Part shown: positions 9,508 through 56,898 of the stretch, in pieces
Layout of the letters: every line of letters starts with the position of its first letter
Position numbering within the stretch: the first letter of the stretch is position 1
From: Gammaproteobacteria bacterium
GTDB lineage: Bacteria > Pseudomonadota > Gammaproteobacteria > Eutrophobiales > Eutrophobiaceae
Direction of reading: 5' to 3'
Assembly (NCBI GenBank): GCA_965243115.1
Contig: CBDEUD010000003.1
Coordinates: 2,474,200-2,538,199 of the forward strand
DNA: 64,000 bases
The notes under the pieces: generated by a model
The model's database searches: none
What the model was told of the DNA's origin: nothing
What the model saw: the letters and a program-made list of their open reading frames with translations, nothing else
Made by a program: the position numbers and the translations under genes

Positions 9508-9654
9508 ATTCAAACTCCTGACAGGGTTAAGCCTCCGCACATCCCGCATTACACCCGGCCGTCTACCGTCGAGCCGGCCAGGACCCCGAAATGCGTTCTG
9601 TAATGTGCGTGTGTTCTAACAACAGTTCTCTTGCTATAACCGGATAATTGGAGT

Positions 9655-20101: not shown

Positions 20102-21376
20102 TCAGAAATTGTAAGTCAGGTTCAACTCGATAAAGCTGTCGTTACGCGTAGAGTAGTGGATATCCTCCCTGTCGATGCCGAGCAGGACAATCGCCTCGAG
20201 GTGCAGCGACCATCGGTCTGAGAGACGCCGGTCCAGGCCTACGCCCAGTGCCTGGGTGGACCGCCCCGTATCCGTGATGAAACTGGCGGTTATTTCGGTG
20301 CTCTGAACGTCATTCAGGGCCATACGCGCGGCGACAAAGATTTCTTTTTCAAACACGCCGGGTGAACGACTCGGGGTTGCATCCCGCCCCCGGTCGTCGT
20401 AATGCCATTCACCGAACAGCGTCAATTCAGCTACAGAACCGAATATGGAATAGAGCGTGTACTCGCTGCCAACGACGGTCGCTACGTAATCCTCTTCCTT
20501 ACCCTGAAGGTTCAGCGCGCCGGCGCGTTGAATCGCCTCCAGCTTGAACAGCCAGCCGCCGAGGGTCAACTGGGCGTCCAGACCGAACTGGCGGATCTGG
20601 GTATAGTATTGAACCAGGTTCAATTCGCCCTCAGGCGTTATGTCCAGTTGCGCGGCAGGCTCACGGTTGGTGCCGTCGAAAACACTCAGTCCAAAGTCCA
20701 GCGGTCCGAAACTGTTGCTGTAGCGCAGTGCGTAGTCAAGGTGCCACTCCTCGGCTGCGCTCTCGTAGCGGATGTTATCGTCATCGATGACCAGCGGCAG
20801 GCGCAGGCGGCCACGCCGGCCGGTAAAGGTCCGGGCGCGATGATAGGGCAAGCCGAACAGTTCCAGTACGCCCCAGTCACCGGCCAGGGTGGCATGAGCC
20901 ATGGGTTGTCCCAGCTTGGCCGTCCCATCGGGATGTTCGACAAAATCCACCTGGTTGATGACATCGACCAGGCGCTGCGATTCGACCACGCCCCAGAACA
21001 CCTGGTCGACTCCCAGACGCAGTTCCCATTCGTTATCGCCCATGGAGCCGAACATCAGCAGGTAGGCTTCACGCAGGTCCACGTGGGTACGGCGAGTGTC
21101 TGCGGCATCCAAACGGAAGAAAGGCGCCAGGGTGAAGCTTCTGCCACCGGCGTCCTCGATGTAGAACTCCGGCTCCAGCACAATACCGCCGGCGTAGTCC
21201 CGTTGCCCGGAAAACAGGGGGTCCTCGGGATACCAGCGGCCTTCAATGCTTGCGCTGCCGGTAAATTCGTAGTCGGCTATCTCAATTCCCACACAGGTCA
21301 CCGGCGCGGCGATGAGCAGCAAACACCAGACAACCCGGAAGACCGCTCGGCAATCAGCGGTACTGCGCGGCATCAA
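20102..21376 (-). CDS. Putative outer-membrane beta-barrel protein (DUF1302-like partner of MMPL transporter)
   Basis: Signal peptide, alternating beta-strand pattern and C-terminal ...NLTYNF ending in Phe. Last gene of the MMPL/LolA-like/OMP cluster. Confidence 0.6.
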   Translation of the reverse strand: MMPRSTADCRAVFRVVWCLLLIAAPVTCVGIEIADYEFTGSASIEGRWYPEDPLFSGQRDYAGGIVLEPEFYIEDAGGRSFTLAPFFRLDAADTRRTHVDLREAYLLMFGSMGDNEWELRLGVDQVFWGVVESQRLVDVINQVDFVEHPDGTAKLGQPMAHATLAGDWGVLELFGLPYHRARTFTGRRGRLRLPLVIDDDNIRYESAAEEWHLDYALRYSNSFGPLDFGLSVFDGTNREPAAQLDITPEGELNLVQYYTQIRQFGLDAQLTLGGWLFKLEAIQRAGALNLQGKEEDYVATVVGSEYTLYSIFGSVAELTLFGEWHYDDRGRDATPSRSPGVFEKEIFVAARMALNDVQSTEITASFITDTGRSTQALGVGLDRRLSDRWSLHLEAIVLLGIDREDIHYSTRNDSFIELNLTYNF

Positions 21377-22194
21377 CGCACCCGTTTTAACCCGGTCTGC
21401 GTAAATTCACGATCGTTCAAATCGGTACGGAACTGGTAGTCACTCCAGTTCAGGTCGGTACTCTTGCCGGTGAGATGGTTGATCATGGTCATCTCACCGG
21501 CATACCAGTAACTGTCCAGGTACTGCGCGTAGCCGGTCATGGTAAGCGTCTTCAGGTGCGCATCCTTGCGGTCGTAGTACTCGACTTTCCAGGTGCGCAA
21601 CTCGTCCCGGTCCTGCCACACCACCTGGCGGCTGTAGCCGGACTTCCTGTCCGTGGGGACGCGCTCGATGACCGTGCAGGTCAACTCACCGCACGGTTCA
21701 TCACGCAGGTAGCGATACGTGTACTTCTCCAGTTCCTGGGCGCCCATGTCTTCATAGGAGAACTCACTGCCCATGAATGAACCGGAACGGTTGGCCGAAC
21801 TGATGCGCTTCACCCGTTTCAACGCCGGCAGGTACAGCCACTGGTCATCCGCTTCCACCTTGTGGGCATGTATGAGAAAAGCGGTACCCTCAACGTCGCG
21901 CGGTTCATCGAACACAAACAGACTCTTGTCGCCGTCGCCCTCCACCTCCAGCACCTTGACCCGGAGTGAGCGCGTGCTTTCCTGACCCTGCTTGTTGCGC
22001 AGGACCATGGTCTGGCGCGCCGTGAAATTGCCGTACCCCTGCGCCCGTTCGTCGGTTGCGCGGGCAATGTTCAATCCGATTTCTTCAGGAGTGGCTGCTT
22101 CCGAGGTTGATTTTTGCGGCATACCCAGGGCCAGTAGCGCTAAACAGCATGTAAACAGCACGTACTTCGACCGGACGGAATACGTAGTAGCCAT
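21373..22194 (-). CDS. Outer-membrane lipoprotein-sorting (LolA-like) family protein
   Basis: Signal peptide. Family resemblance (COG2834-like) and genomic coupling to the MMPL transporter. 4-bp overlap with the downstream gene. Confidence 0.55.
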   Translation of the reverse strand: MATTYSVRSKYVLFTCCLALLALGMPQKSTSEAATPEEIGLNIARATDERAQGYGNFTARQTMVLRNKQGQESTRSLRVKVLEVEGDGDKSLFVFDEPRDVEGTAFLIHAHKVEADDQWLYLPALKRVKRISSANRSGSFMGSEFSYEDMGAQELEKYTYRYLRDEPCGELTCTVIERVPTDRKSGYSRQVVWQDRDELRTWKVEYYDRKDAHLKTLTMTGYAQYLDSYWYAGEMTMINHLTGKSTDLNWSDYQFRTDLNDREFTQTGLKRVR

Positions 22195-37480: not shown

Positions 37481-38020
37481 CTATGACGAATCGGCCACGA
37501 GCTGCTGTTCAACGACAGTCATCCGCTCACGAATAGCCGCCTGGCCCTCCTGCAGACCGTTAAACTGCTGCGTCAGGTCGCTGCGGACTTCGTTGGTCTG
37601 CTGCGTCAGGTCGCTGCGGACTTCGTTGATCTGCTGTGTCAGGTCGCTGCGGACTTCGTTGATCTGCTGTGTCAGGTCGCTGCGGACTTCGTTGATCTGC
37701 TGTGTCAGGTCGCTACGGACTTCGTTGATCTGCTGTGTCAGGTCGCTGCGGACCTGGTTGATCTGCTTTATCAGGTCGCTGCGGAGTTCACGGATCTCAC
37801 CACGGATTTCGCGCATCTCACCACGAACTTCGCTGAGCTGTTGAGTCAGGTCGCTACGGACCCCGCTGATTTGCTGGGAAAGGAAAGTGAGGTAAGCAAA
37901 CATCATGGTAACCACGATGGCCGCGCCCCACTTCAGTACGCGCACTTCCCCGGACAGACGCCCCAACTCACGTGCGCCCTCGAGGTCCTGCACTGTCATA
38001 ACCGTGTTTTCCGTATTCAT
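37481..38020 (-). CDS. Membrane-anchored protein with about 10 tandem 11-aa repeats (SDLTQQINEVR; 33-bp minisatellite), paralog A1
   Basis: The N-terminus MNTENTVMTVQDLEGARELGRLSGEVRVLKWGAAIVVTMMFAYLTFLSQQ is identical to the paralog at 39309-39773. One TM helix, then 11-residue repeats, and a conserved C-terminus ...QFNGLQEGQAAIRERMTVVEQ. The ORF track extends it to 38086. Confidence 0.65.
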   Translation of the reverse strand: MNTENTVMTVQDLEGARELGRLSGEVRVLKWGAAIVVTMMFAYLTFLSQQISGVRSDLTQQLSEVRGEMREIRGEIRELRSDLIKQINQVRSDLTQQINEVRSDLTQQINEVRSDLTQQINEVRSDLTQQINEVRSDLTQQTNEVRSDLTQQFNGLQEGQAAIRERMTVVEQQLVADSS

Positions 38021-38143
38021 AATACTTCTCCTTCTGACGTTTCCATCACAGGTCGTATGGCCAGGACAGGGTATGATGCCCGACAACGCCTGTCAAGGGG
38101 CCCTGAGGGGTCAGACCAGTTCAGATCGCCACGAATTTAGAGG

Positions 38144-39256
38144 TCAGGACCACATCTCACCAGCTTTCTTGCGGGAATCAAGCTCATCCAAAGCCAGTTC
38201 GGCGCGCATGGCCTCGGTTGCCGTCGCCTTGGCATCCTCCAGCGGGATGCCCGTCGCATCGGCAACGCGCGGGTAGCAGTTAAATGCTGCAATGACCGCC
38301 GCGGCATCAACCATCGCCGCCTCACCCATTGCTCTTATGATTTGTTGCCGGACTGTTGCCGTGCGCGCTGCATCATCTGCGCAGACAGCCTCGACAAAGT
38401 CATTGAGAAGCTCTCCCCGGGGCAGACCGCTATCACCCGAGCCTTTACCGATTGCATCCTCAAGCGCGTACTTGTCGCCGGTATGTTTGCCGCTCAAACT
38501 GAGCCGCATTGCATGGCTGGCAGTTCAATAAAAACAGTCGAGATAGGCCGAGGTGCGAGTCGCAATGAATTCCATCTGCGCCCGTGAGATTGCTCGCTCG
38601 ACGCCCTCGAGTTCAACTCTTAACGGATTACCCAGGTAAAGCTGGTTCAACAGCGGCCAAAACCGGTTTGCTTCGTCGGGTACCAGGGTCAGCGCGCGTC
38701 GAATATAGGCGGCGGGGCCTGTCTCATAAAAATCACCGAGTTCGTGGCCGGCATCTTCCGGAGCAACCGTCGGCGCCCATCCCGGCCCTGTCTTGGCACC
38801 GGCCGGCCGCCTGCGCGGCGGTATGCCTTGCTCTCCTGTTGCGGACAACGCCAAAGGCGGGAGCCCGATACCGCGCATGAAGGTGTCCGCACCAGTGACA
38901 ATGGTAACGAGGCTCAGCAGCTCGATGAATTCGTCTTCAGCGATACCGGCAGCGATGGTTGAATCGTACCAGCTCTCAGTGATGCGGCCGGAGTCGGTAA
39001 CTATCCGGTGCACCGCCTCGACCCAGGCATCGGGGAGCGCGCCGAGGTGCTCATGATCACCCTGTACGGTATAGGGCGACAAGGCTTCCTTGCGCCGTTT
39101 GCAGAGTTCGCATTGCCATGCGTTGCGGGCTTCGTTTGCAATTGCAAGACGTTGTTCGCCGCTCAGCCAGGCGCCGGTCTGAGCCACTTCCGACCAGGCC
39201 TGGGTCAAGGCCGATTTGAGATTATCCCGTACGGTGAGTGGTGATGTATCTATCAT
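38144..39256 (-). CDS. Candidate selenoprotein of the AhpD/carboxymuconolactone-decarboxylase (CMD) family; in-frame TGA at 38525-38527 read as Sec (two ORF-track ORFs joined)
   Basis: ORFs 38525-39256 and 38144-38509 are in the same frame, separated only by one TGA. Readthrough gives ...AYLDCFY-U-TASHAM..., a C-x-x-U-x-x-x-H motif matching the AhpD C-x-x-C-x-x-x-H active site. A hairpin lies 16 nt downstream of the UGA. Confidence 0.6.
38488..38508 (-). ncRNA. SECIS-like hairpin (mRNA: UGCGGCUCA-GUU-UGAGCGGCA)
   Basis: 9-bp stem with one G.G mismatch and an apical loop containing GU. Starts 17 nt after the in-frame UGA, within the typical bacterial SECIS distance window. Confidence 0.45.
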
Positions 39257-39308: not shown

Positions 39309-39773
39309 CTATGACGAATCGGCCACGAGCCGTTGTTCAACGACAGTCATCCGCTCACGAATAGCCGCCTGGCCCTCCTGCAGACCGTTAAATTGGTGCG
39401 TCAGGTCGCTACGGACTTCGTTGGTCTGTTGCGTCAGGTCGCTACGGACTTCGTTGATCTGCTGTGTCAGGTCGCTACGGACTTGGTCAATTCGCTGTGT
39501 CAGGTCGCTATGGACTTGGTCGATTCGCTGTGTCAGGTCGCTATGGACTTGGTCGATTCGCTGTGTCAGGTCGCTATGGACTTGGTCGATCTGCTGTGTC
39601 AGGTCGCTACGGACCCCGCTGATTTGCTGGGAAAGGAAAGTGAGGTACGCAAACATCATGGTAACCACGATGGCCGCGCCCCACTTGAGTACGCGCACTT
39701 CCCCGGACAGACGCCCCAACTCACGTGCGCCTTCGAGGTCCTGCACTGTCATAACCGTGTTTTCCGTATTCAC
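39309..39773 (-). CDS. Membrane-anchored protein with about 8 tandem 11-aa repeats (SDLTQ[QR]IDQV[HR]), paralog A2
   Basis: Same N- and C-termini as A1, with a different repeat number and sequence. Its upstream about 80 bp is near-identical to the A1 upstream region. Confidence 0.65.
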   Translation of the reverse strand: MNTENTVMTVQDLEGARELGRLSGEVRVLKWGAAIVVTMMFAYLTFLSQQISGVRSDLTQQIDQVHSDLTQRIDQVHSDLTQRIDQVHSDLTQRIDQVRSDLTQQINEVRSDLTQQTNEVRSDLTHQFNGLQEGQAAIRERMTVVEQRLVADSS

Positions 39774-40041
39774 AAATATTCTCCTTCTGACGTTTCCATC
39801 ACAGGTCGTATGGCAAGGTCAGGGTATGATGCCTGACAATGCCTGTCAAGAATAATTGCCGCCCCCGCCAATAGGGTACCGGGTATTGTTGACGGAGGCC
39901 GGCGCAACCACTGACAGGAGTTGCTACTGGAGACAAATAATTGATAAAAATCATAATGATATAATAAATATTCAACATGTCTTCTAGATATATGATAAAA
40001 TCGGTGGTCGTTGATACTCAGCCATTGACAACCCCCATTCC

Positions 40042-41097
40042 ATGAATATCGCCGAAGCACTCCCGCCGTTTCCGGAAGGGTGGTATTTCATCGCCGACCG
40101 AAAAACCGTTCTCAAGAAAAAACTCACCCGGAAAACCTGGATGGGTGAGGAGATCATCGCCTGGTGTGACGCGGAAGGCCGGATCTGCGTGGCCGATGCG
40201 GTATGCCCGCACATGGGTTCCAGCCTGGGTCCGGAGGTGGGGGCCCGGGTACGCGACGGTTGCCTGGTTTGCCCCTTTCACGGATTTGAGTACGATGCAA
40301 GCGGCCAGTGCGTTGCCACCCCGAATGCCCCCGCGCCCAAATCAGCCAGGTTGAAAACGTACGAAACAAGAGAAATACTCGGTCTGGTGTTTGCCTGGTG
40401 GGGGAGCGGCGGACGGCTGCCGCAATGGCAGCTGCCGGAACAGCCGCACACCGGCCCGGACTGGAGCGATCTGGCGCTGGGCTTCTTCAGCTTCCCCGGG
40501 CATCCCCAGGAAACTTCTGAAAACTCCGTGGATCTGGCGCACCTGCGTTATATACACGGCTACGACAACGTACACCCGGTCGGCGATGTGTCGGTTAACG
40601 GCGCCCACCTTGTGTCCCGTTTCGACTTCAGGCGCAACCGGAAATTTGCCGGGTTGATTGACAACATCTACGATGTATCAGCCGTTACACATCTTTACGG
40701 CGTAGGCTACTCCTATGTTGAAATTCACGAGAAAACCATCGGTATGGATGCCAGATTATGGGTACTCTCAACACCCATAGACGGTACACATATTGAACTT
40801 GTGCTGGTGAGCCAGGTCAGGGAACTGCGCAAACCGAAACGGCCCATCGTGGGTTTGCGCTTTATCCCGGTGCATCTGCGCCACAGGTTACTGAACCGCA
40901 TTATACTGCGGGCGCAGATACAGGATGTCCGGCAGGACGTGATTATCTGGGGGAAAAAACAATATCGGCCACGCCCCCGCCTGAGTCAGGCGGATGGCGA
41001 GGTAATGACATACCGGCACTATTGCCGCCAGTTCTATCCGGAAACTTATCCGGAGACGGGCCGTGATGAGTTCCAGCTGAGTTCCGTTTCAGGTTAG
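40042..41097 (+). CDS. Rieske [2Fe-2S] non-heme-iron oxygenase (KshA/Neverland/SdmA-like)
   Basis: Rieske motif CPHMG...(17)...CPFHG and mononuclear-iron motif DLAHLRYIH (DxxHxxxxH). AT-rich promoter-like region upstream (39900-40020). Confidence 0.8.
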   Translation: MNIAEALPPFPEGWYFIADRKTVLKKKLTRKTWMGEEIIAWCDAEGRICVADAVCPHMGSSLGPEVGARVRDGCLVCPFHGFEYDASGQCVATPNAPAPKSARLKTYETREILGLVFAWWGSGGRLPQWQLPEQPHTGPDWSDLALGFFSFPGHPQETSENSVDLAHLRYIHGYDNVHPVGDVSVNGAHLVSRFDFRRNRKFAGLIDNIYDVSAVTHLYGVGYSYVEIHEKTIGMDARLWVLSTPIDGTHIELVLVSQVRELRKPKRPIVGLRFIPVHLRHRLLNRIILRAQIQDVRQDVIIWGKKQYRPRPRLSQADGEVMTYRHYCRQFYPETYPETGRDEFQLSSVSG

Positions 41098-41194
41098 TCC
41101 GCGCAACGCATACGTTATATTACATTAACACGAGTTTTTTGGGACAGTATTGGAGTCTCATATATATCTGAACCCCTGCATGGGAGAATACGGC

Positions 41195-42229
41195 ATGAAA
41201 CTAGGCAAACTACCCAATGCTCTGAAACGTGCGTACCGGGGGTCAGATGTCACCCGTCGAATAAAACATTTCGATGGCTGGAGCGGTCGAGCGGCGCAGG
41301 ATGGCGTCGGAGCGGACAGCTACGACCACAGCGAAACGGTGAAAGAATACTATGAGCTTTGCAACGAGTTCATGGTGTTCGGTTGGAATGAATCCCTGCA
41401 TTTTGCTCCCTTGACGCCCAATGAGACTCTGGAGGACTCCATCATCCGGCATCAGCGGTTGATGATCGCCAACCTGGAGCTGCAACAGGGCATGACAGTT
41501 GTTGATATCGGCTGTGGGATAGGCGGCCCGATGCGCCGCATCGTGCGTGAGTCCGGTGTCCGGGTTGTCGGGGTCAACAACAATGAGGTCCAGATGGAAA
41601 AGGCAAAAATGCTGAATATCGAGGCCGGGGTCGACCACATGGTTGAGTACGTTGCGTGCAGCTTTATGGACATGAGTGTCATCGGAGACAACACTTTCGA
41701 CGCAGGTTATGCAATCGAGTCGACGTGCCATGCGCCGGACAAGGCAGGCGCATTCGCGGAGATATTCCGCGTGCTGAAACCCGGGGCCCTGTTCTGGGGT
41801 CAGGAAATGTGCATGACGGACAAGTTCAATCCGAATGACGCAAGCCACCGGGCCATCCAGCAGGAACTTATGCACTATATTGCGCTGAATGAAATTGCGA
41901 CGCCGGGGGAAGTGAACCAAACGCTTGAAGCGGCGGGCTTCAGCGTCCTCAAAGGGATGGACCTGGGCGTCAGTGAGGATCAATCCACACCCTGGTACCA
42001 ACCCATGGAGACTCAGCATGGAACCCTGGACAAAGCCGTGCGTAGAATTCCATGGGGCCGCAGGGCGCTCATCGTGGCATTGAAGCTGGCCGAAACGGTC
42101 GGACTGTTCCCGAAGGGATCCACGGAAGTAGTCCGGCTCATGGACCGCACGGCACAGGCTTATGTCGCGGGCGGCAGAGCAGCCATATTCACGCCGTTGT
42201 ACTGTTTCCTGGCTCGCAAACCCCTTTAG
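41195..42229 (+). CDS. Sterol 24-C-methyltransferase (ERG6/SMT family)
   Basis: Collinear with yeast ERG6 across the protein: YYELCNEFMVFGWNESLHF (SMT motif I, YEYGWGxSFHF), VVDIGCGIGGP (SAM motif), YAIESTCHAP, VLKPGALF and the C-terminal GGRAAIFTPLYCFLARKP. SD gggagaa before the ATG at 41195. Confidence 0.85.
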   Translation: MKLGKLPNALKRAYRGSDVTRRIKHFDGWSGRAAQDGVGADSYDHSETVKEYYELCNEFMVFGWNESLHFAPLTPNETLEDSIIRHQRLMIANLELQQGMTVVDIGCGIGGPMRRIVRESGVRVVGVNNNEVQMEKAKMLNIEAGVDHMVEYVACSFMDMSVIGDNTFDAGYAIESTCHAPDKAGAFAEIFRVLKPGALFWGQEMCMTDKFNPNDASHRAIQQELMHYIALNEIATPGEVNQTLEAAGFSVLKGMDLGVSEDQSTPWYQPMETQHGTLDKAVRRIPWGRRALIVALKLAETVGLFPKGSTEVVRLMDRTAQAYVAGGRAAIFTPLYCFLARKPL

Positions 42230-42501
42230 ACCCCGATAGGGCCGGTTGGCCCTATACATGACGCCCGGTAGTTTCGGCTGCTATCTCCCTGACTGCACGT
42301 TGCGTAGAGGGGGATGCCGGATAACTGACCCGACGCCATGAGTCCAAAGCACTTGGCTTGATTGAAATTCATTCCATCGAGTGGTATAATGCGCGCGGTC
42401 AACACCTGTTTTTTTATGGCTTCCAATACCCTTGAGATTGAGTTCGGCGCAGGCAAAGGGGCGTTTTCCGATTCCCGGTTTATTAAGTCTAACGCACTGA
42501 A

Positions 42502-44496
42502 ATGATAAGTTTAGTTGACGAACTGGTACTGTTCCTCATCAACGAAGAAAGCGGTTACTTTCACCAGGTTTCAGGCTGGAAACTGCACTGCGCCCTCGCC
42601 GGCGCCGTGCTTGCGGACCTGTCAATGATCTCACGTATCGACACAGACCTGGAGTCTCTTTTTGTTGTCGACTCCACGGAAACAGGCGACCCCGTCCTGG
42701 ATTCCGCCTTGAGGAAAATCGGGGAAGAACCAACGCAACGAAGTACCCAATTCTGGATTGAACGGCTGAGCCCGCGCGCGGAATCGATCATCGATACGAC
42801 TCTGGAACGACTGGCGGAGCGTGGAATAGTGACGGAACATCAAGGCGGGTTTTGGACTATCTCGCGTACTACCTGGCAGACCCATTCCTATTCTTCTGAC
42901 GATGGAGATGAGACGGAGTTCGTCAAGACGCGACTTAGTAAGGTCATTTTCGATAACGAAATCCCTGACCCGAGAGATATTTTCCTCATCTCTCTCATCC
43001 ACACGTGCGATGTCTTTCGCTTTGTCTTCACCCTCGACGAAGCGGCGGAGGAACGTATTGCGGCCATTTCCAGCATGGACGTTCTGGGCCGCGCCATCGC
43101 GGAAGCCATCAGCCAGACCCTTGCAGGTCCGGCGCTGCAACGTGCGATTAAGTCCCGACCGATTCCGACCGTCCCGATACGCGACCTGCTGTTCAGCCCG
43201 CATATCCGCACCGGCAACATATCTGCGCTGTTTGCCGGGCTTGCTGAAAAACACGGGCCCGTGTTCAAGATTAAAGCGCCGTTTATGAAGGAAGACATGG
43301 TAATTCTCGCCGGCCTCGAGGCAAACAAATGGACGCATCGCTCCGGCCGCAACTACCTGAGAGCCAAGGACTATCTTGAAGGTTTCGTGAAGGTCTACGG
43401 CGCCGGGCGGTTGCTGCCCGCGATGGACGGCGCCGACCATTTCCGTTTGCGCAAAACCTATGGTTCGATGAATTCGCGCAAAAAACTTGAAAACCGCCTG
43501 GATGAACTATACGGGCCCGCCCGCGGCTACCTGGCGGGTTGGCAGGTCGGCGACGTCCTGACGGCGGTGGCGACTTTCCCCGAATTGATCAACTCGCAAT
43601 TCTCACCGATCAACATCGGCATCAACACCCAGGACTGTATCAAGGAAGTGATCGAATTCAAGAAGCGGGCGCTCGCCATTCACCTGTTGCGGATGCTGCC
43701 GGAATTCATGCTGTATACCCCGGGCATGAAACGCAGGAAGAAGCACTTTGCCAGGCTGGTCGAGCGGGTGCAGGCTGTGCATACACCAGCCCAGCGGGCG
43801 GGCTGTCCCCGGAATCTTGCGGACGATTTACTGAGCCTGCACGCAAGCGACCCGCAGTTTTTGCCGGAAACGGATTTGCCTTTTGCTTTTGTGTCATCGC
43901 TGCTTGCCGCCTTTTACCTCGGCAGCGCGTTGAGCTTCGCGGTGTACGCCATGGTGTCGCAGCCGGCCCTGTATCGCAGGATACAGGCGGAAGCCGCAAC
44001 GTTCTTTGCCAACGGCGAACCGGTAGGCGAGGAAGTCCAGGAATTCAATTTAGATGTCACCCACCGCCTCATCATGGAGTGCCAGCGTATGTACCCGGTC
44101 GTGCCGATGCAGGTCAGGAACGTAATGAATGCCTTCACGCTCGAAGGATATTCACCTCCTGTAGGAACGCGGCTTTTCATTGCCCAGACAGCCACGCATT
44201 ATATGGATGACGTCTTCCCGGACCCCTTTTCGTTCGATATCGACCGCTACCTCCCGGAACGCAAGGAACAAGTCGGCCACGGCTACGCGCCGTACGGGCT
44301 GGGCACCCACACTTGCCTCGGTCAGAACTGGGTAGAGTTGCAACTGGCGCTTAACCTGCTGCTGATTGCGCACTATTTCAACCTTGAGTTGTCCCCCGAA
44401 AACTACCAGCTGCGTTTCAACCCGATCCCGTCGCTGGCGCCGAGGAAGAGTCTCAAGTTCGTCGTCGCAGAAAAGCGGCGCGAACTGCCTGCCTGA
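42502..44496 (+). CDS. Fusion protein: N-terminal GPP34/GOLPH3-like domain (about 220 aa) + C-terminal cytochrome P450
   Basis: N-terminus MISLVDELVLFLINEESGYF...WKLHCALAGAVLADL matches the GPP34 family pattern (ELLLLALDDE...ALAGAVLAEL). C-terminus has P450 EXXR (ECQR), PERF-like PDPFSFDIDRY and heme ligand YGLGTHTCLG. It is a single 664-aa ORF. Confidence 0.75.
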   Translation: MISLVDELVLFLINEESGYFHQVSGWKLHCALAGAVLADLSMISRIDTDLESLFVVDSTETGDPVLDSALRKIGEEPTQRSTQFWIERLSPRAESIIDTTLERLAERGIVTEHQGGFWTISRTTWQTHSYSSDDGDETEFVKTRLSKVIFDNEIPDPRDIFLISLIHTCDVFRFVFTLDEAAEERIAAISSMDVLGRAIAEAISQTLAGPALQRAIKSRPIPTVPIRDLLFSPHIRTGNISALFAGLAEKHGPVFKIKAPFMKEDMVILAGLEANKWTHRSGRNYLRAKDYLEGFVKVYGAGRLLPAMDGADHFRLRKTYGSMNSRKKLENRLDELYGPARGYLAGWQVGDVLTAVATFPELINSQFSPINIGINTQDCIKEVIEFKKRALAIHLLRMLPEFMLYTPGMKRRKKHFARLVERVQAVHTPAQRAGCPRNLADDLLSLHASDPQFLPETDLPFAFVSSLLAAFYLGSALSFAVYAMVSQPALYRRIQAEAATFFANGEPVGEEVQEFNLDVTHRLIMECQRMYPVVPMQVRNVMNAFTLEGYSPPVGTRLFIAQTATHYMDDVFPDPFSFDIDRYLPERKEQVGHGYAPYGLGTHTCLGQNWVELQLALNLLLIAHYFNLELSPENYQLRFNPIPSLAPRKSLKFVVAEKRRELPA

Positions 44497-54523: not shown

Positions 54524-55969
54524 ATGAACCTGGACCATTACCAGACAGAAGGATTATACGATGAACTGTTGACGCCGCGGTTACAGGCACGGGACGGCCT
54601 CGGCAGTATGCTCGATACGCTTGAACGGCTGAGCTACAAGGAACTGGACAGGCGCAGGCGGGATGCCGAACACGCCATCTCGACCATGGGCATTACCTTT
54701 ACCATCTATAGTGAGGCCGGCAATATCGACAGGGAGTGGCCTTATGACGTGATCCCCCGGATCATCCTCGATAATGAATGGCAACGGATAGAAAAAGGCC
54801 TGGTCCAGCGCCTGCGAGCGCTCAACCTGTTTGTCTCGGATGTCTATAACGAACAAAAGATCGTAAAGGACGGAGTATTTCCCGCATCCATCCTCAAATC
54901 TTCAAAGAATTATCGCCGTGAATGCGAGGGGATGAAGCCGCCCCTGGGGGTATGGGCGCATATCTGCGGCACCGACCTGGTGCGGGACGACGACGGCGTC
55001 ATGTACGTGCTGGAAGATAACCTGCGCATCCCCTCCGGGGTGTCCTACATGCTGGAGAACCGCAGGTTGACCAAGCTCACATTTCCGGAACTGTTCGAGG
55101 ATTATTCCATCGGGCACATGGACGGTTACACCATGCAGTTGTTTGAAACCCTGGGTTCCGTCTCGCCGCGTCCGCTGGATTACCCCGAAGTCGCCGTGCT
55201 GACACCTGGTATTTATAATTCGGCCTATTTTGAGCATTCATTCCTGGCCCGCCAACTGGGCGCCGAACTGGTCGAAGGCACGGACCTGGTGGTTGCCGAA
55301 GACGACTGCGTGTACATGAAAACCATTTCCGGCCTGGACCGTGTCGATGTGGTATACCGGCGGGTCGACGACCTGTTCCTTGACCCGGAGGTGTTTCGCA
55401 AGGACTCCCTGCTGGGAGTGGCCGGCATCATGCGCGCCTGGAGAAAAGGCAAGGTCGGGCTTGCCAATGCCCCGGGGGTGGGTGTCGCGGACGATAAACT
55501 GGTTTATACCTATGTGCCGGAAATGATCCGATATTACCTGGGTGAAGAACCGTTGCTGCCGAACGTTCCAAGTTACCGTTGCAGTGACGACAAGCAGCGG
55601 CGCCACGTCCTGGCCAACCTGGACCAGCTGGTGCTCAAACCGGTCAACGAATCCGGCGGTTACGGCATCGTCATCGGACCGGGAGCAAGCAGGCGCGAGC
55701 TGGCGCAGGCGGCGGACCGGGTCAAGGCAGACCCCCGGAATTACATCGCCCAGCCGGTCGTCAACTTGTCCACGGTACCCACTTTATGCGGCAAGCGCAT
55801 CGAACCCCGCCACGTCGACCTCAGGCCGTTTATCCTGCAGGGAGGTCATTCCTACGTGACTGCCGGCGGGCTCACCCGGGTGGCCCTGGTACGCGGCTCC
55901 CTGGTGGTAAACTCATCACAGGGAGGCGGCAGCAAGGACACCTGGGTAATCGCCGGAAGGGGGCAGTGA
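54524..55969 (+). CDS. Circularly permuted type-2 ATP-grasp protein (DUF404/DUF407)
   Basis: 481 aa. Family resemblance, and the canonical coupling to a downstream alpha-E domain gene with a TGATG overlap. Confidence 0.7.
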   Translation: MNLDHYQTEGLYDELLTPRLQARDGLGSMLDTLERLSYKELDRRRRDAEHAISTMGITFTIYSEAGNIDREWPYDVIPRIILDNEWQRIEKGLVQRLRALNLFVSDVYNEQKIVKDGVFPASILKSSKNYRRECEGMKPPLGVWAHICGTDLVRDDDGVMYVLEDNLRIPSGVSYMLENRRLTKLTFPELFEDYSIGHMDGYTMQLFETLGSVSPRPLDYPEVAVLTPGIYNSAYFEHSFLARQLGAELVEGTDLVVAEDDCVYMKTISGLDRVDVVYRRVDDLFLDPEVFRKDSLLGVAGIMRAWRKGKVGLANAPGVGVADDKLVYTYVPEMIRYYLGEEPLLPNVPSYRCSDDKQRRHVLANLDQLVLKPVNESGGYGIVIGPGASRRELAQAADRVKADPRNYIAQPVVNLSTVPTLCGKRIEPRHVDLRPFILQGGHSYVTAGGLTRVALVRGSLVVNSSQGGGSKDTWVIAGRGQ

Positions 55970-56898
55970 TGCTGTCCCGGGTCGCGGAGCAATTGTACTG
56001 GTACGGGCGCCACGTGGAGCGGGCGGAGAATACCGCTCGTCTCGTCAATGTCAACGCCAACCTGCTCATGGACCTGCCGCGCCCGTTCAAACGCACCTGG
56101 GCGAACCTGATTGACATGACCGGGAGCAATGACGCGTTTTACCGGGCCTACGAGGCAGCCGACGAGAAAAGCGTCCTGCAGTTCATGCTGGCCGATGAGG
56201 CCAACCCTTCCTCGATGGCCTGTTGCGTGCGTATGGCCCGCGAGAACGCCCGCAGTTCCCGGGAGATCCTCCCGGTAGAGGCATGGGAGACGATCAACGA
56301 ATTTTACCTGTACGTGAAAAAGAATCTGGCATCGGACCTGAGACCGGGCGAACGCCATAAATACCTTAACAGCGTGATCGGCTATTGCAGGCAGATTATG
56401 GGAATGCTGTTCAGCGGCATGAGCCGCGGCAGCGCCTACCGCTTCGTGCGCATCGGCAGGAACCTGGAACGGGCCGATATGAGCTCCCGCATCATCGACG
56501 TGGGTTGCGTCAACCTCCTGCCCGTGGAAGGCGACACCGGTGCGGCCTTTGCCGAATTGTTGTGGCTGAACGTCCTGAACTCCCTGAGCAGCTACCAGAT
56601 CTACCGGCAACACGTCAAGGTGCGCCCCAATGGCGAAGACGTGGTCGATTTCCTGCTGAAATACGTGGACGCGCCGCGCAGCGTCTCCCATTGCCTGGAA
56701 GAAATCCACGCCCACCTGGTGCGCCTGCCCGGCAATGACCTGCCTTTGCAGACACTTGAGCGTACCCGGGACATGGTCAGGGAAGCTGACACCATCAACT
56801 TGATGGAACAGAGCGGATTACATGAATTCATCGACAGGATACAGCTTGGCCTGAATGAAATACATGCACAGGTGGAACAGACCTGGTTCAGGTATTGA
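55969..56898 (+). CDS. Alpha-E domain protein (DUF403)
   Basis: MLSRVAEQLYWYGRHVERAENTARL... is a characteristic alpha-E N-terminus. The ORF track starts it 61 codons earlier, overlapping the upstream gene. Confidence 0.7.
   Translation: MLSRVAEQLYWYGRHVERAENTARLVNVNANLLMDLPRPFKRTWANLIDMTGSNDAFYRAYEAADEKSVLQFMLADEANPSSMACCVRMARENARSSREILPVEAWETINEFYLYVKKNLASDLRPGERHKYLNSVIGYCRQIMGMLFSGMSRGSAYRFVRIGRNLERADMSSRIIDVGCVNLLPVEGDTGAAFAELLWLNVLNSLSSYQIYRQHVKVRPNGEDVVDFLLKYVDAPRSVSHCLEEIHAHLVRLPGNDLPLQTLERTRDMVREADTINLMEQSGLHEFIDRIQLGLNEIHAQVEQTWFRY

Follow-up and report, generated by a model that had tools for sequence, protein, structure and literature searches.

An in-frame UGA in an AhpD-related gene of an uncultured gammaproteobacterium is almost certainly a selenocysteine codon

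Two neighboring open reading frames (ORFs) on the minus strand of contig CBDEUD010000003.1, from a Gammaproteobacteria bacterium, encode 243 residues (39256..38525) and 121 residues (38509..38144), the first being terminated by a TGA. Are these two genes, or one gene whose UGA is decoded as an amino acid? The 64,000-nucleotide stretch analyzed here is referred to as the window, and coordinates are given within it. Minus-strand positions 39256..38528 and 38524..38147 form one frame of 370 residues whose sole interruption is the TGA at 38527..38525, as the initial annotation of this DNA had stated. We conclude, with a probability of about 0.9, that 39256..38144 is a single gene encoding a cytoplasmic redox protein of 370 residues from the AhpD-related family NF041238, in which the UGA specifies selenocysteine (Sec) and is followed by a hairpin resembling a selenocysteine insertion sequence (SECIS). 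The two features on which the argument turns are the following.

38144..39256, minus strand: complete coding sequence of an AhpD-related selenoprotein, 370 residues including U244, from the ATG at 39256..39254 to the final stop TGA at 38146..38144.
38525..38527, minus strand: in-frame UGA, almost certainly read as selenocysteine U244; TGA at 54 of 56 sites, Cys in full-length homologues, and alignment on the second Cys of CxxC.

When the UGA is read through, the local sequence becomes ...ATRTSAYLDCFY-TGA/U-TASHAMRLSLSGKHTG... (LDCFY-U-TASH), in which C241, U244, and H248 make up the C-x-x-U-x-x-x-H site that had been recognized from the start. The beginning of the gene (MIDTSPLTVR) and its end (...EKWS*) are common to close relatives. 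Searched with Cys in place of the stop, the joined protein matched the NCBIfam model NF041238 (AhpD_rel_CFYUT, alkylhydroperoxidase-related (seleno)protein) with E = 1.3e-128 and 429.3 bits against a cutoff of 175, residues 9-360 aligning as one continuous stretch, across the UGA, with positions 1-356 of the 357 in the model. The C-F-Y-U-T motif that gives the family its name is present, and all TGA homologues carry C-[FYHTVLE]-Y-U-T. NF041238 is listed as a CxxU selenoprotein in a 2026 review, which treats it as the same family as ‘hypothetical protein 1’ from the selenoproteome of the Sargasso Sea (PMC13188914); that protein was described by Zhang, Fomenko and Gladyshev in 2005 from four sequences with a conserved CXXU and a SECIS-like stem-loop, and with no functional evidence (PMC1088965). 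A full-length match, the C-F-Y-U-T motif, one Sec, CxxU, and a downstream stem-loop are common to this family and the gene of the window, and no difference of substance separates them. The core of the initial annotation, one gene with UGA for selenocysteine and a SECIS-like hairpin downstream, is supported, but the family has been known since 2005 and has a curated NCBI model, and the present gene is an ordinary member of it. What we add is descriptive and concerns the two-lobe fold, the residues of the relay, the constraint on synonymous sites, and the adjacency to selB-selC in some members.

The conservation of the TGA was followed in proteins and in DNA. When about 5.8 billion proteins were searched, 117 of the 120 homologues listed had lengths of 226-268 residues, matching only the first 61-66% of the query, and the one row of truncated length that was inspected, P0012, ends ...LDCFY, which indicates that gene callers stop at the UGA site. 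Full-length homologues carrying Cys are rare in the databases; P0047 (376 residues) and P0069 (383 residues) have the sequences CFY-C-ATSH and CFY-C-TNAH, in which Cys occupies precisely the position of the stop, where the initial annotation had expected it. Among 62 related loci collected from genomes and metagenomes, 56 sites, that of the window included, cover the UGA position: the codon is TGA in 54, TAA or TAG in none, and TGT in two, which are a single distant sequence (31% identity) present in two copies. Loci with TGA are distributed over Gammaproteobacteria (about 90% identity to the window), Alphaproteobacteria/Rhodospirillaceae, Pseudomonadales, and Actinomycetota, with identities down to 28%, and in every TGA locus the frame stays open and conserved past the UGA (...MGEAAMVDAAAVIAAFN...). 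A genuine stop or gene boundary at this position, which had been named beforehand as speaking against selenocysteine, is not what the homologues show.

Where the UGA falls in the protein was examined by comparison with known structures. A nine-member family profile matched the solved peroxidase-related/AhpD core proteins 3c1l, 2pfx, and 6k40 (E ~1e-11) over profile positions 175-331, and CFYU-T-x-S-H was aligned on the C-[YF]-Y-C-L-x-A-H of solved AhpD-core proteins, with U on the second Cys of CxxC. The UGA therefore lies inside the second lobe of one two-lobe protein and not between two AhpD genes; the proposal that it joins two AhpD/CMD ORFs has to be corrected in this respect; the first ORF comprises lobe 1 and the first helices of lobe 2. 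On fold models of the natural Cys-form homologue P0047 and of the exact 243-residue fragment of the window, two all-helical lobes of the AhpD type are assigned to the protein.

38837..39256, minus strand: first (N-terminal) AhpD-fold lobe as modeled, approximately residues 1-140, with C49-x-x-C52, H68, and H83 invariant in proteobacterial members.
38237..38734, minus strand: second (C-terminal) AhpD-fold lobe as modeled, approximately residues 175-340, which holds the UGA and is placed by the profile match to AhpD-core structures.
38513..38572, minus strand: active-site helix-turn-helix with the proposed proton relay E229, C241, Y243, U244, and H248, assigned from invariance and AhpD spacing.

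All five of these relay residues are invariant in the family alignment. The proton relay has been described as E118/C130/H132/C133/H137 in AhpD from Mycobacterium tuberculosis and as E36/C48/Y50/C51/H55 in PA0269 (PMC3141380), and the pattern Glu-x11-Cys-x-(His/Tyr)-Cys-x3-His given there recurs in the window protein with identical spacing and Sec for the second Cys. Both proteins (1gu9 and, from Pseudomonas aeruginosa, 2o4d) also share the all-helical fold, and the middle relay residue is Tyr as in PA0269. They differ from the window protein, at approximately 11-20% identity, in having a single AhpD core whereas the latter is a two-lobe monomer with Sec and with no adjacent ahpC. The second Cys of M. 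tuberculosis AhpD (Cys133) attacks AhpC while the first is partly buried, and the opposite emphasis applies to the two Cys in AhpD from B. thailandensis (PMC6626918). Since U244 aligns with Cys133, by analogy it would occupy the attacking position and not the resolving one to which it had been assigned, an assignment that the B. thailandensis enzyme makes provisional.

A second cluster of conserved residues is found in the first lobe. C49-x-x-C52 (39101-39112), H68 (39051-39053), and H83 (39006-39008), all on the minus strand, are invariant in all 55 mainly proteobacterial aligned sequences, and the N-terminal CxxC is missing from the actinobacterial members L015 and L018. This Cys49-x-x-Cys52/His68/His83 cluster may bind a metal or form a second redox center.

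Translation beyond the UGA is established by the pattern of substitutions. Thr at codon +1 is invariant through four codons (ACC 18, ACG 11, ACT 9, and ACA 2), His +4 is invariant as well, and both are located upstream of any possible restart codon. Codon +6 is GCG, ATG, GCC, CTG, or GTG across the family, so that there is no conserved internal start. The ratio of nonsynonymous to synonymous substitution rates (dN/dS, Nei-Gojobori), computed for the seven genomes of the window's clade, is 0.16 before the UGA and has a median of 0.24 after it. TGA terminates nine of the 16 confident genes of the window, the present gene at its own end included; as an ordinary stop there, it shows that the genetic code is not reassigned.

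These observations bear directly on the explanation that translation truly stops at the TGA and that the gene is split, an N-terminal protein of 243 residues and a C-terminal one of 121 residues with its own initiation (ATG at 38509) being made and possibly associating. Such a division would agree with the ATG found six codons past the TGA in the window's clade, with the reporting of both pieces by gene callers, and with the failure to see Sec machinery in the 64 kb. It is contradicted by the variability of codon +6, which leaves no conserved restart, by the protein-level selection on the residues between TGA and ATG, among them Thr +1 and the catalytic His +4, and by the Cys that takes the place of the stop in full-length homologues; it would also sever the C-x-Y-U-x3-H relay. 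We regard a split gene as very improbable.

The reading of the UGA as selenocysteine also predicts a signal in the RNA, and a hairpin is present immediately downstream.

38488..38508, minus strand: SECIS-like hairpin, -10.5 kcal/mol as a 21-mer, with family-wide pairing and synonymous constraint.
38504..38492, minus strand: conserved upper stem GCUC/GAGC with the 5-nt loop AGUUU, which pairs in 44 of 44 sequences; the lower three pairs lie beyond a G.G mismatch.
38476..38522, minus strand: extended imperfect helix around the hairpin (minimum free energy -16.2 kcal/mol for a 57-nt segment), predicted only for the window and its close clade.

The window hairpin reads 5'-UGCGGCUCA-GUU-UGAGCGGCA-3' and has as its first nucleotide the 17th after the UGA. 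Its start and its GUU loop agree with what had been described initially, while the stem is not a perfect one of 9 bp but consists of eight pairs and one G.G mismatch. The extended helix is not conserved across the family and its role is uncertain. For the comparison, 44 distinct 66-nt TGA segments were anchored on the codon frame and aligned without gaps. RNAalifold found that the four-pair stem GCUC/GAGC can form in all 44, with a closing pair that is G-C in 35, G-U in eight, and A-U in one. Over the eight-pair extension, 83.8% of cells pair, against 26-53% with slid partners, and the observed covariation score was reached by 0 of 500 shuffles. The lower stem is partly kept across the family, the conserved portion being the top 4-5 pairs. 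The loop is (A/C)-G-N-N-N in all sequences, with an invariant G, and begins 24 nt after the UGA. Bacterial SECIS elements have been recognized as a stem-loop that lies closely downstream of the UGA and has a small loop at its apex with a G in it (PMC1088965), a description that fits this hairpin, with little true covariation; no Rfam family matched at the site, a negative that carries little weight.

Because the hairpin RNA also encodes conserved residues, synonymous codon identity was compared along the whole gene in sequence pairs with less than 75% protein identity. The seven highest eight-column stretches of the gene all fall between codons +1 and +22. CTC is the codon of Leu +8 in 40 of 40 sequences, as against five codons at Leu +22; all codons listed at +10 end in G while encoding at least five amino acids, and Ser +11 is always AGY. 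Synonymous identity in codons +1 to +13 is different from that of the remaining codons (Mann-Whitney p = 0.014), and the relative with a Cys codon has no hairpin at the same offset (-0.1 kcal/mol). The synonymous constraint and the lack of the hairpin in the Cys-codon relative support a functional RNA structure, though compensatory change is scarce.

The machinery of selenocysteine insertion was encountered beside the gene in other loci. In two metagenome loci, tblastn revealed a homologue of SelB immediately upstream of the family gene (E = 9e-44 in L028 and 4e-51 in L029), and ARAGORN placed a tRNA-Sec with anticodon UCA between the two.

L028 and L029, positions 1-2568, all on one strand: C-terminal part of selB at 2-1237, tRNA-Sec at 1265-1360, and the AhpD-related gene with its TGA at 1501-2568.

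At least one lineage thus keeps the gene immediately behind selB-selC. This adjacency counts against the view that the UGA is read through without selenocysteine, by a near-cognate Trp or Cys tRNA or by another suppressor mechanism. Such decoding draws on the fact that Sec insertion lacks direct demonstration and that the sel genes of the source genome were not seen in the 64-kb window. It leaves unaccounted for the Cys, the usual partner of Sec, that homologues carry at the site, and a SECIS-type hairpin whose loop G is invariant, whose distance from the UGA is right, and which is under constraint at the RNA level; elsewhere in the window TGA serves as a normal stop, and curation has placed the family among the selenoproteins. 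Read-through of this kind is, in our estimate, highly unlikely. A pseudogene or a sequencing or assembly error, the latter having been named initially as a possible refutation and either one favored by nothing but the bare presence of a stop codon, is effectively refuted by the same TGA recurring in 54 sequences that come from several phyla and were assembled independently, and by a downstream frame of approximately 126 codons that is open and under purifying selection.

Several results weigh against the selenoprotein explanation and have to be set beside the evidence in its favor. The joined protein scored below the cutoffs of Pfam PF02627 CMD (14.9 against 23 bits) and TIGR01926 peroxid_rel (45.3 against 81.8 bits), and its family is therefore distinct within the AhpD/CMD superfamily, its kinship to these two being at the level of superfamily and fold only; the TIGR00778 score was likewise below cutoff (16.1 against 27.8 bits). 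Neither selA, selB, selD, nor tRNA-Sec was found in the 64-kb window by NCBIfam models on 20 ORFs, tblastn with E. coli SelA, SelB, and SelD, or a tRNA scan, tRNA-Pro being the only tRNA there; such an absence is expected for 64 kb of approximately 4 Mb and carries little weight either way. The stem of the hairpin contains the G.G mismatch in the window's clade, and its core is so invariant that true covariation is scarce, the closing pair contributing one A-U and eight G-U. Moreover, the 81-nt segment around the hairpin folds no better than dinucleotide shuffles (z = 0.25), and thermodynamic stability alone was rejected as evidence for a SECIS on this ground. What raises the hairpin above chance is comparison, namely TGA at 54 of 56 sites, upper-stem pairing in 44 of 44 segments, and suppressed synonymous variation after the UGA. 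Finally, the literature surveyed contains no biochemical characterization of any family member.

In the sequence of events that we infer for this organism, the ribosome would arrive at the UGA of codon 244, and the downstream hairpin, with its GCUC/GAGC stem and invariant loop G, would recruit SelB with Sec-tRNA(Sec). Selenocysteine would be inserted and translation would run on for 126 codons. By analogy with AhpD, the U244 selenolate may then attack an oxidized substrate, either the sulfenate or disulfide of a peroxiredoxin or a peroxide directly; C241 would close a selenenylsulfide, which a thiol donor would reduce. The attacking residue, the physiological substrate, and the reductant are all proposed on this analogy. 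No ahpC or peroxiredoxin gene adjoins the selenoprotein gene in the window.

Other AhpD-like selenoproteins with CxxU are known, with 27 sequences in the Sargasso Sea study of 2005 (PMC1088965) and, in the Global Ocean Sampling (GOS) survey of 2008, 299 sequences of ‘AhpD-like 1’ and 70 of ‘AhpD-like 2’ (PMC2398784). AhpD-like 1 (COG2128), AhpD-like 2 (PF02627), and TIGR01926 resemble the window protein in the CxxU of the AhpD-core helix pair, in their abundance in marine metagenomes, and in having Cys homologues. They differ in that AhpD-like 1 and AhpD-like 2 are separate families in the review table (PMC13188914), and in that the window protein falls below the TIGR01926 and PF02627 cutoffs. 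A link to COG2128 through E. coli YciW was unsupported (hhalign probability 0.3, E = 0.22), in what is a weak test of a nine-sequence profile against a single sequence. The solved single-domain relatives have 145-197 residues, and the window protein is approximately twice as long because of its extra N-terminal lobe.

This doubling allows a further, rather unlikely idea, that the members of the family are bacterial proteins resembling sestrins, with two AhpD lobes in tandem, a Cys-Sec relay in lobe 2 and, in lobe 1, the separate Cys/His cluster possibly serving as a metal site or as a second redox center that passes electrons to the selenenylsulfide. If true, the protein would be a self-contained two-center selenoenzyme, of which the literature surveyed holds no description. 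Human Sestrin-2 (5cuf) shows 11% identity in a comparison made from the predicted model of the Cys-form homologue, nothing suggests a shared function, and no match to the Pfam sestrin model (PF04636) places the protein in that family.

The chromosomal surroundings were also inspected. The gene order in the closest relatives is Rieske-type oxygenase, selenoprotein gene, tRNA-Pro, and ispB, which indicates that the selenoprotein gene is a stable chromosomal resident of the lineage. No neighbors are conserved across clades; synteny is clade-specific only, in clusters dominated by shadow ORFs, and conserved neighbors were for this reason rejected as a functional clue. A scan for promoters and terminators gave nothing convincing beside the gene, the nearest promoter-like minus-strand site (39983..39956) being located upstream of the preceding repeat-protein gene. 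When the window was scanned for in-frame TGA codons with coding signal on both sides, the codon score discriminated poorly among the 26 candidates, of which only 38525-38527 has a redox context.

Two paralogous repeat genes flank the selenoprotein gene at 37481-38086 and 39309-39773, both on the minus strand, and are 81% identical over 621 nt including their leaders. Their tandem arrays (37558-37789 and 39400-39614) hold approximately 7 and 6.5 copies of a 33-nt (11-residue) ‘VRSDLTQQINE’ repeat within small proteins, one of which has no NCBIfam match and the other a sub-cutoff match only. Among close relatives, L001, L003, and L005 have neither repeat gene, and L004 and L014 have the upstream copy only. 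On the plus strand, 40042-44496 encodes in a row a Rieske-type oxygenase, an S-adenosylmethionine-dependent methyltransferase, and a 664-residue cytochrome P450; the oxygenase is syntenic in relatives and weakly matches the 4beta-methylsterol monooxygenase model NF052579 (SdmA), and the row may be a sterol- or terpenoid-modifying cluster of this uncultured gammaproteobacterium. Farther away, the Rfam t44 RNA (RF00127) was detected at 9526-9631 on the minus strand (49.5 bits against a gathering score of 44). Long overlapping ORFs of 345-481 residues with no NCBIfam match occur at 54524-55969 and 55786-56898, both on the plus strand, and at 20102-21376 (minus) and 20402-21439 (plus).

The main importance of the finding lies in annotation hygiene. 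As the initial annotation had predicted of ORF callers, public collections (NCBI-, ENA-, JGI-, and Logan-derived calls) store the 243-residue piece (P0001) and the 121-residue piece (P0165) under separate unnamed entries, with 34 members in the cluster of each, and the mis-splitting is systematic wherever selenoprotein-aware annotation is absent. Division into ‘hypothetical proteins’ in dozens of records conceals the existence of a selenoprotein as well as its host's dependence on selenium. The names of some relatives' records (RHO3, Spongia) hint at sponge metagenomes, and the gene marks an uncultured gammaproteobacterial lineage as a probable user of selenocysteine. For a family that, 20 years after discovery, still has no assigned substrate, experimental handles are provided by the relay residues, the two-lobe fold, and the conserved SECIS, while the kind of protein that it represents is unchanged.
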